From: a virus
Virus record (IMG/VR): IMGVR_UViG_3300028902_000368
Direction: 5' to 3' (one strand)
Length of the DNA stretch: 64,000 nt
The first letter of the stretch is position 1, and each line of letters begins with the position of its first letter. This document shows positions 4,187 through 57,398 of this stretch, piece after piece. The position numbers were made by a program, and so were the translations under genes. The notes under the pieces were generated by a model. It saw only the letters and a list, made by a program, of their open reading frames with translations, searched no databases and had not been told where the DNA came from.

Positions 4187-4699
4187 CTACCGCTGGGCAG
4201 CCAGACGCGCGGCCTCGGTGGCCGAGAGCGCGCCGCCCCCCGTGATGTTGTGACGGGGGACTGCGCCACCGATCACATCGTGACGGGGGGTCGCCAGACC
4301 CACTCCGTAACCCTTGCTCGCGGCCGGCACGGAAGCCGGTGCAGCCGTCGCCGGGCGGTGGCTGAGGCCGAGGCCCGCGAAATACTTGAACGCCATGCCG
4401 CCGAGGAGCGCGGTGCCACCGTTGACCATGCAGCGGTCGGCGACGGGCGGGCCCTCGAGCACCATGTTGGCGAGCGCGCCCACGTACAGGGCGAGGACGC
4501 CGTACAGTTCGAGGGGCGCCCCGAGGAACTTCGGGTTGTTCAAGCGGCCACTCATGTAGCCCTGGCCCGCGAGCACGAGGACGGTCGCGCCCTCCTCGGC
4601 CGCCACGTTCAGCGGGTTCTCCACGTACCCGAGCACCGCGTTCGCCCGGGCGAGGGCGTGACGTGCAGCTTGGTTCATTGCGGTGACGCTCTCGGCCAT
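4187..4699 (-). CDS. Hydrophobic protein with 2-3 predicted TM segments
   Basis: ELYGVLALYVGALANMVL and GTALLGGMAFKYFAGLG. Confidence 0.7.
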   Translation of the reverse strand: MAESVTAMNQAARHALARANAVLGYVENPLNVAAEEGATVLVLAGQGYMSGRLNNPKFLGAPLELYGVLALYVGALANMVLEGPPVADRCMVNGGTALLGGMAFKYFAGLGLSHRPATAAPASVPAASKGYGVGLATPRHDVIGGAVPRHNITGGGALSATEAARLAAQR

Positions 4700-4813
4700 T
4701 GCTCCTCCGACGTTGTGAACGATCAGAGAGAATCATGCGGCACGAGAGTGGTCAAAGGCAAAAGTGACCTTGCCTCAGACGCTACTTCTGCTTTTCTAGC
4801 GCAGAATCAATCG

Positions 4814-5032
4814 CTATTCCGTCGTCTTCGCAGCCTTCTTCTCACGCTTCTTTGGCGCGATGCGCGTGCGATTCTCCTGCGTCAGACGCCGAATGAGGCG
4901 CTGCGCGTCCTTCTTCGCCGCACGTTTCCACTCCTCCGGACGCTTCTCGTCGACGTCGATGACGCGGCTCAGGTGCGCCAGTTGCTGCACAAAACGCAGG
5001 TAGTCGTTGACGGGCTTGGGGGCACGGGGCAT
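4814..5032 (-). CDS. Small basic hypothetical protein
   Basis: MPRAPKPVNDYLRF...; Lys/Arg-rich. Confidence 0.5.
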   Translation of the reverse strand: MPRAPKPVNDYLRFVQQLAHLSRVIDVDEKRPEEWKRAAKKDAQRLIRRLTQENRTRIAPKKREKKAAKTTE

Positions 5033-5109
5033 CTGTTTTCCTGCTGCTTTCGCGGTCAGCCGCCCTCGCGGGTAGCGTTCCCGATACGGTGCATTCGGTA
5101 CCGCTACAC

Positions 5110-5158
5110 TGTCAAGCATTGGCAATCGTTGACAATGTACGGTTCCGAACCGTAGGCT
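5110..5158. promoter_or_regulatory. Divergent sigma70-like promoter region with a 15-bp palindrome
   Basis: TTGACA at 5129-5134 (+) and 5110-5115 (-); palindrome ACGGTTCCGAACCGT at 5139-5153. Confidence 0.5.
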
Positions 5159-5165
5159 TTTTTTC

Positions 5166-6131
5166 GTGGCACCAGAGCCCGAGACCTTGCCGCGTGATAC
5201 GGCCGTCGTTCGACGCGATCAGATTTTTGTCGATCATGGTCGGAATCTGTCCCGTGGAGGCCGCGCGATTGACCCTGCGGCACCGAGCACGCTCGAACTC
5301 GCCATCGAGATCGGGAGTCACGGGCAGCACATGCCGGTCAGCGTGCGGCGGATCCCGCCCCGCAAGGACGGGGCGATCTACCGGCTGATCGCTGGATATC
5401 GCCGCATGACGGCGATGGACGTCCTCCACAAGGACCGCCGCGACTACCCCGTGTTCGTCGTGTTCAGCAACGCGCTGACCGACTTCGACGAGGCCGTCGA
5501 GAACTTCGCCGAGAACAGCCAGCTGCCACCGAAGGACTTCGAGCTCGCCGAGGGCGTGTCGCTGCTCCGCGTGCAGCACGGCCTCTCCCTCGAGAAGGCT
5601 GTGGAACTGATCTTTAGCCGGCAGAACGTGAACAACGCTTCGGCGACCCGCATCGCCAAGGCGACCGTGGCCTGGGAGAGCCTCATCCAGCCGCTCCGGG
5701 AGCTGTGGCGCAAGAACACGCCCATGTTCCAGCTCTCGGAGGCCCACAAGCTCGCCAACTACGCGCCCGTCGAGCAGGAGCAGTGGCTTGAGCAGCTGAT
5801 CTCCAACAACGAGCCCGACCCGGTGAAGGTGCGCATCGGCAGCGCTGCGTTCGGCAGCAAGCCCGAGAAGCCGCCCCTCGAGATCGCGCGTCGCCCCACC
5901 AAGAGCCGCATCAACCGCGCCTTCCTCTCCCTCAAGACCGGCGAGGGCGACCCGCACAACGACGGCCTGACGCCCGAGGAGCGGCGCATCACCGTCAAGC
6001 TCCTCCGCTGGATCCTCGGCGTGCCCGTCGATGGCAAGGCGCCGAGATGTCCCATCCGTGGACGGGCGTTCGGGAAGAAGGACGCCGACGACTCTCTCGA
6101 AGACACGAGTGGTGTGGTGGAGGACCAATGA
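5166..6131 (+). CDS. ParB/Spo0J-like protein
   Basis: GQHMPVSVR...YRLIAGYRRMTA...ENFAEN matches the ParB N-terminal domain; HTH-like segment follows. Confidence 0.8.
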   Translation: MAPEPETLPRDTAVVRRDQIFVDHGRNLSRGGRAIDPAAPSTLELAIEIGSHGQHMPVSVRRIPPRKDGAIYRLIAGYRRMTAMDVLHKDRRDYPVFVVFSNALTDFDEAVENFAENSQLPPKDFELAEGVSLLRVQHGLSLEKAVELIFSRQNVNNASATRIAKATVAWESLIQPLRELWRKNTPMFQLSEAHKLANYAPVEQEQWLEQLISNNEPDPVKVRIGSAAFGSKPEKPPLEIARRPTKSRINRAFLSLKTGEGDPHNDGLTPEERRITVKLLRWILGVPVDGKAPRCPIRGRAFGKKDADDSLEDTSGVVEDQ

Positions 6132-6433
6132 CCCGCGAAGAACAGCAAGCGATCCTGATGCGCGCCTCCCGGATCCTGACTCCGATCCAGAGCGCGCTCG
6201 GGACCATCAAGATCCAGCAGGGCCGTTCGGAGAAGACTCTCTCGGCAGAGGAGTTCGATCGGCACTTCGAGGTCGCCTCGAACACCGCGTTCCTCAGCCT
6301 CTTCGTCGCCAAGTCGCTCGAGCTCGGACTCACGCTCGAGGAGATGCAGCACAACGTCGCGACCATCTACAAGCGGCACATGGACGTCATCCAGAGCCAG
6401 CAGCGGAGCGGCAAGAAGCCTGACGGCGGATGA
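6128..6433 (+). CDS. Hypothetical protein
   Basis: ATGA overlap with the ParB-like gene; GC3-rich frame. Confidence 0.7.
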   Translation: MTREEQQAILMRASRILTPIQSALGTIKIQQGRSEKTLSAEEFDRHFEVASNTAFLSLFVAKSLELGLTLEEMQHNVATIYKRHMDVIQSQQRSGKKPDGG

Positions 6434-29481: not shown

Positions 29482-29484
29482 ACC

Positions 29485-29886
29485 ATGAGCGACATCAAGC
29501 CTCCGACGGGTCGACGCACGTCCGACGAGCGGATCGCCCGCTGGGAGGCTGCCTGTGGCGAGGGCTGGGCCCCCATGAGCACGACCCCGCAGGAGATGCT
29601 CGACCTCATCGCCGACCTCAAGGACGCCGAGGCGCGCGTGCTCGAGCTCGAGCGGAAGATCACCGCTGGCACCGCCCTCTTGGTCGCGCCTGCACCGCCA
29701 TGGACCGTCTTCGCGGATCGAGGCGAGCCGCTTGCCATCCTCCCCGCGGGACGCCCCGGGACAGTGCTGAACGTGAAGGGTTGGGACGCTCGTGAGGTCG
29801 ACGAGCTGGTGAGAGCCGCCAACAGGAATCGGCGGTTCATGGCGCATCGTCTCGACCTCCCGGCGGCTCTCCGGAGTCGTCGATGA
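29485..29886 (+). CDS. Hypothetical phage protein (Ead/Ea22-like segment)
   Basis: PQEMLDLIADLKDAEARVLELE. Confidence 0.5.
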   Translation: MSDIKPPTGRRTSDERIARWEAACGEGWAPMSTTPQEMLDLIADLKDAEARVLELERKITAGTALLVAPAPPWTVFADRGEPLAILPAGRPGTVLNVKGWDAREVDELVRAANRNRRFMAHRLDLPAALRSRR

Positions 29887-30140: not shown

Positions 30141-30147
30141 CTCGTTG

Positions 30148-30222
30148 CGCGCTCTGCAGGACTCGAACCTGCAACATCCCGACGCCATAAGCCGGGTGCT
30201 CTACCATTTGAGCTAAGAGCGC
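30148..30222 (-). ncRNA. tRNA-like RNA with 6-bp anticodon stem (loop TTATGGC, nominal ATG)
   Basis: Acceptor GCGCTCT/AGAGCGC; canonical D arm and TTCGAGT T-loop; extra base pair in the anticodon stem. Confidence 0.7.
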
Positions 30223-30225
30223 TCG

Positions 30226-30308
30226 TGGGGGAGGGTGGAATTGAACCGACCTGCCTCCACCGAGACCGCGAGGGTCACGGCGGTGCTCTGCCGATGAGCT
30301 ACTCCCCC
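30226..30308 (-). ncRNA. tRNA-like RNA with elongated anticodon arm and no 7-nt loop
   Basis: Acceptor GGGGGAG/CTCCCCC; CCGCC/GGTGG stem encloses 17 nt containing a GACC/GGTC hairpin. Confidence 0.7.
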
Positions 30309-35017: not shown

Positions 35018-35822
35018 GATCGGTCTCCACGTCGGCGATCGACGTCACGAAGATCGGGAAGGGGCCATCGGATCCGTCACCGCGGAAGTGTAGGCCGCTC
35101 TCGTCGGACGAGACCCTGGTGAACATCTCGACCAGCCGTGCACGCTGCATCGCGTGACGCACCGACAGCGGGTTGCCACGCCCCTGCTGCACCATGCGTT
35201 CGGTGACCGCTGCGGTGACGCTGCTGTTGCAGATCGAGATCCACTGACCGTTCGGCATCCGGGCGGCCGCGAACACTTCGGCGGGCGAATGCTCCATGAC
35301 TTCGCTCAGCAGTTTCCCTGCGCTCACCTCGTAGACCTTCGACATCGGCACGTTCTTGTTCAACGTGCGCAGCACCTCGAAGAACTCGAAGGGGAACTCG
35401 CCCTCGACCGCCACCGCGTAGCTCGTGGACTCGGTACCCGCGCAGATGATCTGGTTGTCCACCACCACGGATGGCACCACCCACACGATGCCCGTCGCCT
35501 CCATCGTGCGCGTGCGGAACCACTTCACCATGGCGGAGGTGTTCGACCGATCGACGACCAGCCCCTTCAAGTGCTCCCAGCGCGCGGGCGTCCCCGCGGC
35601 GAACTTGTAGACGACGGCGCCCGCCAGCACCGCGGCCGCCACCGAGCACAGCTGACCGTTGCGCGAGTGCGGCCCGATGATGGTCGCGGCCCCGGCGAAC
35701 AGGCCGAAGAACCAGACCTCCAGCGGGATGCGGGCGAGCGAAGGGTTCGTCCATCGACCCGCCATGAAGCCGACCATCGCTAGCAAGGCGGGGATGAAGA
35801 CGAAGAGTTCCGCGATCGTCAT
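34992..35822 (-). CDS. Membrane protein with three N-terminal TM segments
   Basis: ATGA overlap; hydrophobic N-terminal 75 aa. Confidence 0.65.
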   Translation of the reverse strand: MTIAELFVFIPALLAMVGFMAGRWTNPSLARIPLEVWFFGLFAGAATIIGPHSRNGQLCSVAAAVLAGAVVYKFAAGTPARWEHLKGLVVDRSNTSAMVKWFRTRTMEATGIVWVVPSVVVDNQIICAGTESTSYAVAVEGEFPFEFFEVLRTLNKNVPMSKVYEVSAGKLLSEVMEHSPAEVFAAARMPNGQWISICNSSVTAAVTERMVQQGRGNPLSVRHAMQRARLVEMFTRVSSDESGLHFRGDGSDGPFPIFVTSIADVETDLRRSAGRG

Positions 35823-36415
35823 GCCACCGCCTCCTGCACGAAGAAGTCCTTCACCCACTCGACCCAGGCCGGAGGGATGTCCTTCGGGTCGAACCTCGGG
35901 CCCATCATCGGCAGATGCTTCGGCTTGTGCGGACGGCGCAGGAGCTTCATGCCCGCCTGCTCCGGCGTCCGGTTCGCCTTCCTCGAGTTGCACGGGTAGC
36001 AGGCCGAGACGATGTTCTCCCAGACCGTCTTGCCACCATGCTCCCGCGGGACGACGTGGTCGTAGTTGAGCTCGTGCATCCGCTTCGGGCTGCCGCAGTA
36101 GCAGCAGCTGAACCCGTCGCGCGTGAACACGTTCATCCTCGAGAACTTGATCGCCTTCTTGAGGCGGGGCGTCGGCTTCGACAGGCGGACCACCGAGGGC
36201 ATGTGGATGGTCAGGTCGCCCTTCTGGTAGATGATCTCGTCGGTGTGCTCCACCACCTCGACCTTGTTCGTGTAGATCATCGTGATCGCGCGATCCCACG
36301 ACACGACCTTGTGGGGCGCATACCCGTTCGTGAGCACGAGTACACGATGCTCGTGCTGACGTTGTGGCGCCCGCTCGACCTCCTCCACGACCCTCTTGCG
36401 TTCCGCCCCGTTCAC
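35819..36415 (-). CDS. HNH endonuclease (McrA-like)
   Basis: VLVL...SW.RA...PSVVRL...FSRMNVFTRDGFSCCYCG...DHVVPR.HGG...WENIVSAC..CN.RK. Confidence 0.92.
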   Translation of the reverse strand: MNGAERKRVVEEVERAPQRQHEHRVLVLTNGYAPHKVVSWDRAITMIYTNKVEVVEHTDEIIYQKGDLTIHMPSVVRLSKPTPRLKKAIKFSRMNVFTRDGFSCCYCGSPKRMHELNYDHVVPREHGGKTVWENIVSACYPCNSRKANRTPEQAGMKLLRRPHKPKHLPMMGPRFDPKDIPPAWVEWVKDFFVQEAVA

Positions 36416-37074
36416 GACAGCACCCTTTTCTCGCACTCGGCCTTGTAGATCATCGCCTCCAAGCGCCGGATCCGTTCATCGTACATCACCGCGCGCGCCA
36501 GTACCGCCACCAGGCACACGGTCCAGCGCATCGCGAGACGGCCACGGGTCACCGAGTCCTTGGTCTCGTGCTCGTCCAGCACCTCCCACAGGATCTTGGT
36601 GACGTAGAGGGGCAACCCGAGCCGATGGCTCTCCTCCACCGCACGCCACTGGTCGAGGTCGCCGCGCATCTCCCGTTCGTGGTCGGCCACGATCGTTAGG
36701 TTGTCTGGACGCGCCGCTTCCACGTGGAGCCGAATCCCCCAGAGGGTCACGTGCTCGCCGATGGCCGTCAGCATCGCCTCTCGAGGTGCCGTCTCGACAG
36801 AGGGGCCCTTGCGGGCGCCTGCCAGCCGGATGAGGGTCGACAACGCGGACACCGTCATCGACTGACGGGATGCACGGGAAGCGTTCCCCACCTCGCACTC
36901 CCACAGGGCCAAGAGCGCGTCCATGACGGCGGACTCGATCCGCTCGGACTCGTCCGCGCCTTGCGCGACTTGGTTCGCCAAGAGCCCCATCGCGTTCGTG
37001 AGCGGCAACGCCTTCACGAGGAAGGCCGTGTCCTCCTCAGCTGCGACGTCAACGATCAGCTTCGCGGGGTTCAT
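36412..37074 (-). CDS. Hypothetical protein
   Basis: GTGA overlap; helical. Confidence 0.65.
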   Translation of the reverse strand: MNPAKLIVDVAAEEDTAFLVKALPLTNAMGLLANQVAQGADESERIESAVMDALLALWECEVGNASRASRQSMTVSALSTLIRLAGARKGPSVETAPREAMLTAIGEHVTLWGIRLHVEAARPDNLTIVADHEREMRGDLDQWRAVEESHRLGLPLYVTKILWEVLDEHETKDSVTRGRLAMRWTVCLVAVLARAVMYDERIRRLEAMIYKAECEKRVLS

Positions 37075-37084
37075 CGGTGACTCG

Positions 37085-37166
37085 TGGTGCGAGAGGAGAG
37101 GATCGAACTCCCATGGGCATCGTGGCCCGGGCTCTCGCCCGCGTCTTCCGGTTCCGCCACTCTCGC
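37085..37166 (-). ncRNA. tRNA-Leu-like RNA with the anticodon loop replaced by a GAGA tetraloop
   Basis: Leu-type D arm, long variable arm, A73 and encoded CCA; anticodon arm is GGGC-GAGA-GCCC. Confidence 0.75.
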
Positions 37167-37167
37167 G

Positions 37168-37253
37168 TGGTGCGCAGGAGGGGAGTCGAACCCCTACGTC
37201 ACTGAGGACACCAGCACCTCAAGCTGGCGCGGCTGCCATTACGCCACCTGCGC
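37168..37253 (-). tRNA. tRNA-Leu(GAG)
   Basis: CCAGC-TTGAGGT-GCTGG; long variable arm; CCA. Confidence 0.9.
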
Positions 37254-37272
37254 GCGTTCCTTCGCCAGCCTG

Positions 37273-37358
37273 TGCTTGGGAGAGGAGTTGAACCTCCACG
37301 GGCGCGTATGTCCCGCCACGGTCTGAACGTGGTGTGTCTGCCGTTCCACCACCCAAGC
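37273..37358 (-). tRNA. tRNA-Leu(CAG)
   Basis: CCACG-TTCAGAC-CGTGG; long variable arm. Confidence 0.9.
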
Positions 37359-37382
37359 GCGTCAACGTGTTCAGAGAGTCAG

Positions 37383-37514
37383 TGCCGATGCGGGGAGTCG
37401 AACCCCTGGTAGCTTGTGTGCTCGCGCTGTGTGGACCCGTGAAGGTCCGAGGTGCTCAAGCAGGTCTGGAACGAGCCTTATTCGTTTGGGGGTACCGTCC
37501 CCCTTATCATCGGC
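37383..37514 (-). ncRNA. tRNA-like RNA B (132 nt) with giant variable-arm insert; nominal anticodon AAG
   Basis: GCCGATG/CATCGGC; D stem GGGGG/CCCCC; AACGA-ATAAGGC-TCGTT; insert shared with RNA A; TTCGACT T-loop. Confidence 0.75.
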
Positions 37515-37522
37515 GTAATTTC

Positions 37523-37660
37523 CCCGTGTCCGAGATGCTCGTGCTGTTTTTTCTGGTTTGGTAGTGAGCCAAATTGCCAACCACTGGCGCAGCTCCATTT
37601 TGGTGGAGTTGTGAGGAGTCGAACCTCTGCTTGTGAGCACGTGCTGTGTGGACACGGGTA
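37523..37660 (-). ncRNA. Circularly permuted tRNA-like RNA C (3' half 37601-37660 precedes 5' half 37523-37596); nominal anticodon CAC
   Basis: ...TTCGACT CCTCA CAACTCC A CCA AAAT GGAGCTG...; TTTGG-CTCACTA-CCAAA; free ends pair as GGACACGGG/CCCGTGTCC. Confidence 0.7.
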
Positions 37661-37661
37661 G

Positions 37662-37786
37662 TCGGGGAGTTGGGAGTCGAACCCAAGAGCTTGTGTGCTC
37701 GCGCTGTGTGGACCCGTGAAGGTCCGAGGTGCTCGAGCAGAGTTCCAATGTTGCGGATTGGTGTCCTTCCGTGGACTTACTCCCCG
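37662..37786 (-). ncRNA. tRNA-like RNA A (125 nt) with 58-nt variable-arm insert; nominal anticodon GCA
   Basis: CGGGGAG/CTCCCCG; GTCC/GGAC; CCAAT-CCGCAAC-ATTGG; TTGGG-TTCGACT-CCCAA. Confidence 0.75.
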
Positions 37787-37838: not shown

Positions 37839-37866
37839 ACTCTACCCATAATCGGGCACGTGTCAA
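37839..37866 (-). promoter_or_regulatory. Sigma70-like promoter of the tRNA-like cluster
   Basis: TTGACA-N16-TAGAGT. Confidence 0.6.
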
Positions 37867-38450
37867 GGCCCGATGGAAGAACGCACGAAACTCGGGGCGA
37901 TCTCGTAGTTCACGCGCTGCTCGTGGACCAGGAAGAGGCGGGCCGCCTCCGCGAGGTACGCCGACACGATGCCCACGAACGGCAGGAACGCGCCATCCTC
38001 GCACGTCGCCACGCCCGCGCCGGGCTCGTCGTCGATCTGGAAGCGCTCGTCCCAGACCACCCGCCCGTACGCGCCATCGGCCGCCAGGCCACCGTGGAGG
38101 CACGGGATGCCGCGCGCGCGCACGTAACCCTGCACGATGCGCCGGGATGCCCCGTTGTCCAGGCAGTCGATCACCAGCGCGGATCCACCCAGGAGTTGCT
38201 CCTCGTTGTCGGCCGTCAGGCGGTGCGGCACCGTCTCCACGCGGCGGTTGAACAGGAAGTGCATCTGCTGCGCGAGCGCCGACACCTTCGGCTTCCCGAT
38301 CCCCGGCATCCCGAGGAACTGGGACTGCGTGTTCTTCGACTCGACCCGGTCGAAGTCGATCACACGCAGGACCGTGTCCGTGCTTCGCAGGAACTGCGTC
38401 ACGTGCGACCCCAGCGCGCCCGCACCCACGATCGTGACCATCTTCTTCAT
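37863..38450 (-). CDS. ThiF/MoeB (E1-like) adenylyltransferase
   Basis: IVGAGALGS, VIDFDRVESKN..SQ, IGKPKV, VIDCLDN..SR and C-terminal Cys (VATCED). Confidence 0.9.
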   Translation of the reverse strand: MKKMVTIVGAGALGSHVTQFLRSTDTVLRVIDFDRVESKNTQSQFLGMPGIGKPKVSALAQQMHFLFNRRVETVPHRLTADNEEQLLGGSALVIDCLDNGASRRIVQGYVRARGIPCLHGGLAADGAYGRVVWDERFQIDDEPGAGVATCEDGAFLPFVGIVSAYLAEAARLFLVHEQRVNYEIAPSFVRSSIGP

Positions 38451-57323: not shown

Positions 57324-57326
57324 ATG

Positions 57327-57398
57327 TGGTCCAGCTGACGCCACCACTCCGCTCTTCGGCACGTTGGCGCCCGCGAACGAAGTGGTCACGCCAGCTGG
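57327..57398 (-). ncRNA. Rod-shaped RNA ending in ACCA, between two tRNAs
   Basis: 11-bp plus 9-bp stems (CCAGCTGGCGT/GCGTCAGCTGG; ACCACTTCG/CGGAGTGGT), then ACCA. Confidence 0.45.

Follow-up and report, generated by a model that had tools for sequence, protein, structure and literature searches.

A minus-strand gene at 37166..37085 of the window, the whole 64,000-nucleotide stretch of viral DNA analyzed here, encodes a class-II tRNA-Leu body whose anticodon arm is cut down to a stable hairpin. This RNA, referred to below as the mimic, is a tRNA-Leu derivative and belongs among the tRNA mimics as a natural variant. It occupies the same locus in five diverged phage lineages, between a true tRNA-Leu gene and an open reading frame (ORF) of no known family, and its sequence has hardly changed among them. 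The reading tentatively favored here is that of a selected, non-decoding, bacterial-type class-II tRNA-Leu derivative that serves as a competitor or decoy.

Anatomy and leucine identity of the mimic

Read from the minus strand and folded by hand, the mimic forms a cloverleaf in which 23 of 23 pairs are standard or G.U, with an energy of -35.0 kcal/mol against an unconstrained minimum of -35.6 kcal/mol. A short hairpin, the stub, stands at the place of the anticodon arm and has a folding energy of -6.7 kcal/mol in isolation. The first-pass annotation had described a tRNA-Leu body carrying a GGGC-GAGA-GCCC hairpin, and the minus-strand fold of 37166..37085 bears this out. The parts of the gene are as follows:

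37085..37166, minus strand: tRNA-Leu mimic, 82 nt including CCA, with RNA nucleotide 1 at 37166; assigned from sequence and fold, kept in five lineages
Minus strand, by hand fold: acceptor stem GCGAGAG/CUCUCGC, 7 bp, followed by U8 and G9
37141..37157, minus strand: Leu-type D arm with a 3-bp stem, GCG/CGC, and A14, A15, G18G19 and A20a in the loop
37129..37140, minus strand: stub at the place of the anticodon arm, made of a GGGC stem strand, a GAGA cap (37133-37136) and GCCC
37113..37128, minus strand: long variable arm, GGGC-CACGAU-GCCC, with 4 bp and a 6-nt loop; an unpaired A and U48 come next
37096..37112, minus strand: T arm, GGGAG-UUCGAUC-CUCUC, with a G50.U64 pair; invariant in five lineages
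37085..37088, minus strand: A73 (37088), invariant in five lineages, and the encoded CCA (37087..37085)

The mimic resembles bacterial class-II tRNA-Leu, nearest to the UAG type (RF00005), with which it shares the Leu D arm, A73, the long variable arm, and the T loop. It differs from a decoding tRNA-Leu in lacking the 5-bp anticodon stem and the 7-nt loop with U33, a Leu anticodon, and a purine at position 37. The interval from the D stem to the variable arm is accordingly 12 nt long, compared with about 20 nt in a normal tRNA. Since the defining feature of the anticodon arm is missing, the mimic is not filed as a decoding tRNA.

The leucine character of the D arm is borne out by its distribution in bacteria. 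An 18-nt word covering the arm, with one free position, is matched in at least 120 bacterial contigs, and 117 of 119 bacterial genes carrying it are typed as tRNA-Leu by ARAGORN among the matches listed. These tRNA-Leu genes comprise all anticodons and are full-length (83-89 nt) among the matches listed, and no shortened gene with the word occurs among the matches listed in bacterial contigs. On this count, the earlier designation of a Leu-type D arm holds.

The determinants read by E. coli LeuRS are A73, A15-U48, G18G19, A20a, and the elbow pairs, and C2-G71 acts as an anti-determinant against SerRS (PMC9976931). The letters of the mimic show A73, C2-G71, A14, A15-U48, G18G19, A20a, U54-A58, and G19-C56. 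Every E. coli-type LeuRS identity element of PMC9976931 is therefore present, in agreement with the initial claim of intact Leu identity. Because the entire body of the mimic is invariant, conservation of the Leu elements is not a specific sign of charging.

LeuRS disregards the anticodon. E. coli tRNA-Leu stays active without its anticodon arm (Larkin 2002, as cited in PMC9976931). In A. aeolicus, deletion of the anticodon arm makes Km 2.5-fold worse and leaves kcat unchanged (Yao 2008, PMC2377443); it also abolishes editing and raises Ile mischarging tenfold (PMC2377443). The footprints of LeuRS on tRNA-Leu fall at positions 28, 29, and 42 (PMC2377443), which belong to the part of the stem that is still present in the stub. 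The charging of arm-less tRNA-Leu in these studies (Larkin 2002, as cited in PMC9976931; PMC2377443) supports the earlier statement that LeuRS largely ignores the anticodon.

The acceptor stem strand GCGAGAG is identical in the tRNA-Leu(UAG) of two bacterial metagenome-assembled genomes (L130 and L049), and the 5' 26 nt of the mimic match those genes at 25 of 26 positions. The T stem differs at 5 of 25 positions from these nearest bacterial tRNA-Leu(UAG) genes. Its pairs 49-65, 50-64, and 51-63 are G-C, G.U, and G-C, a triplet that gives an additive estimate of -9.1 kcal/mol for EF-Tu and that the source flags as common and non-additive. The phage Leu genes score about 40 bits against a covariance model of the mimic, which itself scores 112. 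An origin as a recent copy of a neighboring tRNA-Leu was considered and rejected, since the mimic is no nearer to the GAG, CAG, and CAA genes of the phage than these are to one another.

Operon and genomic neighborhood

The window has 67% G+C and is phage-like, with DnaB, HNH endonucleases, PHROG families, and 29 tRNAs called by ARAGORN. Around the mimic, the minus-strand order is a ThiF-type gene, three tRNA-like RNAs, tRNA-Leu(CAG), tRNA-Leu(GAG), the mimic, an orphan ORF, and an HNH gene:

37866-38450, minus strand: ThiF-type protein, 195 aa, upstream of the RNA cluster
37839..37866, minus strand: sigma-70-like promoter that heads the RNA cluster, TTGACA-16-TAGAGT, conserved in the alignment
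37383..37786, minus strand: three tRNA-like RNAs with a large extra arm, in blocks conserved in L033, L039, L041, and L163
37272..37358, minus strand: true tRNA-Leu(CAG) in the same operon, used below as a divergence yardstick
37168..37253, minus strand: true tRNA-Leu(GAG), whose own A73 lies 4 nt upstream of nucleotide 1 of the mimic in every lineage
36412..37074, minus strand: orphan ORF, 220 aa, modeled as all-helical, starting 10 nt past the CCA in the window
35819..36436, minus strand: HNH endonuclease gene, next downstream of the orphan ORF

One promoter-like site was found at the RNA cluster, where 0.1 would be expected, and no terminator-like site was found from the cluster down to 35700. 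In all lineages, the three tRNA-like RNAs precede the Leu genes and share a transcription unit with the mimic, and the distance from the mimic to the orphan ORF is 8-30 nt across lineages. A metatranscriptome library yielded a 202-nt contig that aligns to 37052-37251 with two mismatches and runs from tRNA-Leu(GAG) through the mimic into the start of the orphan ORF; since DNA carry-over is possible, it is a weak sign of transcription. Three of the four RNA runs (X19, X22, and X23) yielded no contig over the mimic, and contigs of this kind cannot reveal RNA ends or levels.

The 220-aa orphan matches no Pfam or PHROG family and falls into only five clusters among 5.8 billion proteins. Its helical model (pLDDT 70) has no PDB fold match at E<=0.001. 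A search with the ThiF-type protein gives 1917 relatives at E<=1e-10, and many of these are encoded on contigs of 350-660 kb. In the most diverged lineage, represented by contig L163, three extra genes (4605-6387) separate the ThiF gene from the RNA cluster, which remains contiguous with the orphan ORF and the HNH gene.

Gene families were surveyed in the window and three flanks, which together make up about 85 kb of the 105,464-bp contig. Within these ~85 kb, the Pfam assignments on record and additional scans show no aminoacyl-tRNA synthetase, no Aat (Leu_Phe_trans), Bpt/ATE, Fem, MprF, or CDPS family, no CCA-adding enzyme, and no integrase or reverse transcriptase. A gene for a PTH2-type hydrolase is present at about 29482-29883, 7 kb from the mimic. 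Beyond the window, the same contig (L176 12103-13488) has genes for a Mg-chelatase/ComM-like ATPase and for a large protein resembling DNA methylases, and most other genes in that part belong to no known family.

Other tRNA-shaped RNAs of this phage also depart from the decoding form. At 30225-30308 on the minus strand, a tRNA-shaped RNA has as its anticodon arm a long, closed helix built of 6 bp, an internal loop, a further 4 bp, and a 5-nt loop, in which ARAGORN reads a four-base 'anticodon', gacc. For the neighboring gene at 30147-30222, on the same strand, ARAGORN gives His(AUG), but a 6-bp anticodon stem sets it apart from a normal His tRNA. Inside the main tRNA cluster, the minus-strand interval 57324-57398 encodes a near-perfectly paired 68-nt rod followed by ACCA, with an energy of -54.5 kcal/mol (z = -8.5), which looks like a minihelix bearing an acceptor end. 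The RNAs at 30225-30308 and 57324-57398 fit a wider habit of this phage of encoding acceptor-bearing non-decoders.

Conservation and detectability

Relatives of the locus were reached by a protein route, through homologues of the 220-aa ORF just downstream of the mimic, which share 95, 69, 54, and 53% identity; a fifth lineage type, with 35-38% identity of this ORF, was reached via the ThiF neighbor. The mimic is found in all five of these diverged lineages, which come from several independent metagenomes of different studies (JGI, ENA, and Logan). In L033-L042 and L163, it lies at the same place, directly 5' of the 220-aa ORF every time, and it is therefore neither chance nor an assembly artefact. 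A search for the same truncation elsewhere had been suggested at the outset, and its presence in five lineages means that it is not unique to one assembly.

With the stub excluded, 2 of 67 positions vary across the five lineages, and no lineage has more than one change from the window. One of these differences is a loop base of the variable arm (A to U), and the other is a single base of the D loop, in L163 only. All differences are confined to loops, the stub, and the three letters after A73. The 23 pairs are invariant without exception, so covariation support for the fold is absent. The three letters 3' of A73 are CCA, CCG, CUA, or CAA, depending on the lineage, and an encoded CCA is confined to the window, L033-L038, and L039/L040. 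The encoded CCA that the first-pass annotation had listed is real in the window, but it is not conserved.

In the stub, the GGGC/GCCC stem is unchanged in all five lineages. Four of the five have a GNRA cap, with the sequence GAGA, GCGA, GCAA, or GUAA. In L163, the 4-bp stem instead ends in GCCACUG, a loop of 7 nt that, with C33 and U37, does not read as a canonical anticodon loop. The GNRA cap noted at first is thus a property of four lineages, and because the outgroup lineage L163 has the 7-nt loop, a description of the arm as sealed by a tetraloop is not universal. Where the cap does vary, it varies only within GNRA, so it cannot be a fixed anticodon, and the earlier claim that the RNA does not decode gains support. 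The stub of L163 is 4 nt longer than that of the window, a length difference that excludes an antisense reading frame.

The extent of divergence between the window and L163 can be gauged from the surrounding sequence. Between these two, the 220-aa ORF is identical at 38% of amino acids and 48% of third codon positions, the spacers are about 53% identical, and the true tRNA-Leu(CAG) and tRNA-Leu(GAG) are 75% and 90% identical. Over the same span, the mimic has changed at 1 of 67 positions outside the stub. Measured against these yardsticks, the mimic is under strong purifying selection. This selection, together with a cap that changes only within GNRA, makes the case for function.

The mimic was not called in the window by ARAGORN, and an Rfam search at E<=1 gave no RF00005 match for it; no Y RNA model or any other Rfam family matches it either. 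That both ARAGORN and the Rfam tRNA model miss the gene is what one would expect of a tRNA body whose anticodon arm is gone. In two relatives, ARAGORN types the copies wrongly, as Ala(AGC) in L039 (2908-2989) and as Val(CAC) in L163 (7088-7173), so these copies could enter automatic annotation as decoding tRNAs. Censuses of phage tRNAs overlook genes of this kind, since they are missed or wrongly typed by tRNA finders and Rfam.

Direct searches by sequence gave no further copies. In the cultured-phage database, a blastn search with 36900-37500 found matches only over the true tRNA-Leu part. In IMG/VR, there was no match to an exact 28-mer or to two degenerate patterns of the mimic, and no related locus was found with the two flanking proteins as queries. 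A pattern scan of the JGI metagenome collection returned 32 matches, all of them chance occurrences inside unrelated sequence. Huge phages that share the ThiF gene (L165-L173, ~64% identity) have no copy in its 4-kb flanks. Outside the window, in the ~85 kb of contig seen, there is no further tRNA and no further match to the mimic covariance model. A search of the full-text literature found no natural anticodon-less tRNA gene of this kind, only tmRNA, Y RNA, and engineered constructs, and no paper describing a conserved anticodon-less tRNA-Leu gene of a phage was found.

Function and competing explanations

In the favored reading, transcription would start from the promoter at 37866, and the mimic would be the last RNA of the operon, with protein genes directly after it. 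The RNA would be excised in the manner of a tRNA, by RNase P at nucleotide 1 and by 3' trimming, with CCA repair where CCA is not encoded. Host LeuRS would then charge it with leucine. By analogy with the E. coli and A. aeolicus enzymes, the bacterial LeuRS of the host most likely binds and leucylates the mimic, since the elbow, the acceptor stem, A73, and the D loop offer everything that bacterial LeuRS reads. Having no anticodon loop, the mimic cannot pair with a codon, and a nuclease cut in that loop is impossible. It would work off the decoding center as a tRNA-Leu look-alike, occupying a host factor that recognizes the tRNA-Leu body or its acceptor end, such as a tRNA-directed defense toxin, and would meanwhile be kept out of translation. 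A slight lean toward this decoy role comes from the several other acceptor-bearing non-decoders of the phage, from the lack of a visible transferase, and from invariance at the level of sequence, which suits mimicry of one particular tRNA. Known anticodon nucleases mostly read the anticodon loop itself, and the mimic, missing that loop, would be a poor decoy for them.

A different use of the same charged RNA would be as a dedicated leucine carrier, in which the LeuRS-charged mimic forms a protected leucyl-RNA pool feeding an aminoacyl-tRNA-dependent transferase. This is a possible but doubtful alternative, and equally doubtful is the proposal that the consumer would be the host L/F-transferase or Bpt, acting in N-degron tagging, or an unrecognized phage enzyme. 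The evidence from identity and precedent is the same as for a decoy, and the loss of the anticodon is accounted for equally well, because a lost anticodon combined with full LeuRS determinants is exactly what a ribosome-insulated donor needs. A precedent in kind is the Staphylococcus tRNA-Gly used for cell-wall synthesis (PMC7826273). The contig also holds many ORFs without a known family, the 220-aa neighbor included; however, no Leu_Phe_trans, ATE, FemAB, CDPS, or aaRS family occurs in ~85 kb of the 105-kb contig, and the neighboring ORF, a predicted all-helical bundle for which no fold match was found, is unlike known transferases. In the T stem, the additive estimate for EF-Tu looks weak, but it concerns a triplet flagged by the source as common and non-additive, and no sign of tuning away from EF-Tu can be read from it. 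To our knowledge, the known aminoacyl-tRNA transferases all use ordinary tRNAs, so removal of the anticodon is not required for a donor.

The remaining explanations dispense with leucine altogether. The tRNA shape might act in cis and only guide RNase P and the 3' enzymes, so that cutting there releases tRNA-Leu(GAG), whose 3' end lies 4 nt upstream, and fixes a 5' end for the mRNA that follows 8-30 nt downstream, leaving the released RNA jobless. The fixed 4-nt gap to the upstream tRNA, the ORF immediately after the mimic in five of five lineages, the lack of a terminator between the RNAs and the ORFs, and the RNA-library contig that joins tRNA-Leu(GAG), the mimic, and the ORF start all agree with such a processing element. 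It is nevertheless improbable. For RNase P, little beyond the T and acceptor arms is required, yet invariance extends equally to the D arm, the variable arm, and A73, and the body as a whole is more conserved than the adjoining true tRNAs. A working tRNA would do for this purpose, which leaves the lost anticodon and the retained stable cap unexplained. An uncharged scaffold or cofactor, which would bind a phage or host protein through the elbow and the variable arm with leucine irrelevant, is also hard to credit; its partner could be Ro60-like or ubiquitin-like machinery, or an assembly factor. In all lineages, the mimic is co-transcribed with the three tRNA-like RNAs directly downstream of the ThiF-type gene, and invariance that is sequence-level rather than merely structural suggests contacts over most of its surface. 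However, the mimic matches neither the Y RNA models nor another Rfam family, lacks the long helix of the neighboring RNAs, and has no copy within 4 kb of ThiF in the huge phages that share this gene at ~64% identity, and a scaffold could do without A73 and an intact acceptor end.

A tRNA-Leu pseudogene in decay, or a relic kept for recombination that has no RNA function (a homing target or an attP-like site), is strongly disfavored and very improbable. In its favor, the mimic is not called by tRNA finders, and an HNH endonuclease gene lies two genes downstream. The five lineages, however, hold at most one change outside the stub relative to the window while third codon positions are saturated, and the cap stays GNRA even though its middle letters vary. 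The ORF between the mimic and the HNH gene is only 38-71% identical, which means that homing has not recently homogenized it, and no integrase or reverse transcriptase occurs in the ~85 kb.

Several known systems resemble the mimic in part. The minimalist tRNA-Leu constructs of the laboratory (Larkin 2002, as cited in PMC9976931; PMC2377443) share its elbow, acceptor stem, A73, and lack of an anticodon loop, and they are charged by E. coli and A. aeolicus LeuRS (PMC9976931, PMC2377443). Those constructs are engineered deletions, whereas the mimic comes from a conserved natural gene and retains a stable cap along with the top four stem pairs; it can be regarded as the natural counterpart of the hand-built 'minimalist' LeuRS substrate. 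The Staphylococcus non-proteinogenic tRNA-Gly is used outside translation after charging by the normal synthetase, both of which are predicted for the mimic, but it has a normal anticodon arm and known Fem transferase partners for peptidoglycan bridges (PMC7826273).

tRNA mimicry without an anticodon is also found in tmRNA and in the Y RNA domains of bacteria and phages (YrlA, RF02553; PMC4201824). These RNAs are processed by tRNA enzymes, and tmRNA is aminoacylated. They differ from the mimic in what replaces the arm: a message and pseudoknots in tmRNA, a Ro60-binding helix in Y RNA, and a bare 12-nt hairpin here. The mimic has no tag-coding domain, its G3-C70 pair rules out the Ala identity given by G3.U70 of tmRNA, and ARAGORN found no tmRNA in the window. 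It likewise has no Ro60-binding helix and no RF02553 match. In the tRNA cluster of T4, the stable RNAs known as species 1 and 2 (rnaC and rnaD) are non-tRNA molecules that lie in a phage tRNA operon and are released by tRNA processing. Species 1 and 2 are not known to preserve a complete aminoacylation identity set. The tRNA mimics that we can name carry a large replacement domain, lack aminoacylation identity, or are made in the laboratory.

A near-unchanged mimic amid diverging true tRNAs and proteins points to a function of a chargeable tRNA body outside decoding during infection. Candidate functions are counter-defense against tRNA-directed toxins, supply of an amino-acid transferase, and control of LeuRS. 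More speculatively, and with rather low likelihood, large phages may encode a class of ribosome-invisible, synthetase-chargeable tRNAs, of which the mimic would be the leucine member, holding a private pool of activated leucine for an undescribed transferase or a toxin-neutralizing pathway. Should editing be lost with the shortened arm, as it is in the A. aeolicus deletion, this pool could hold near-cognate amino acids instead. On the host side, a wastewater contig (run X23; window 37141-37198) carries a full-length bacterial tRNA-Leu(UAG) with 2 differences in the 5' 26 nt, and this resemblance might hint at the tRNA of the host.
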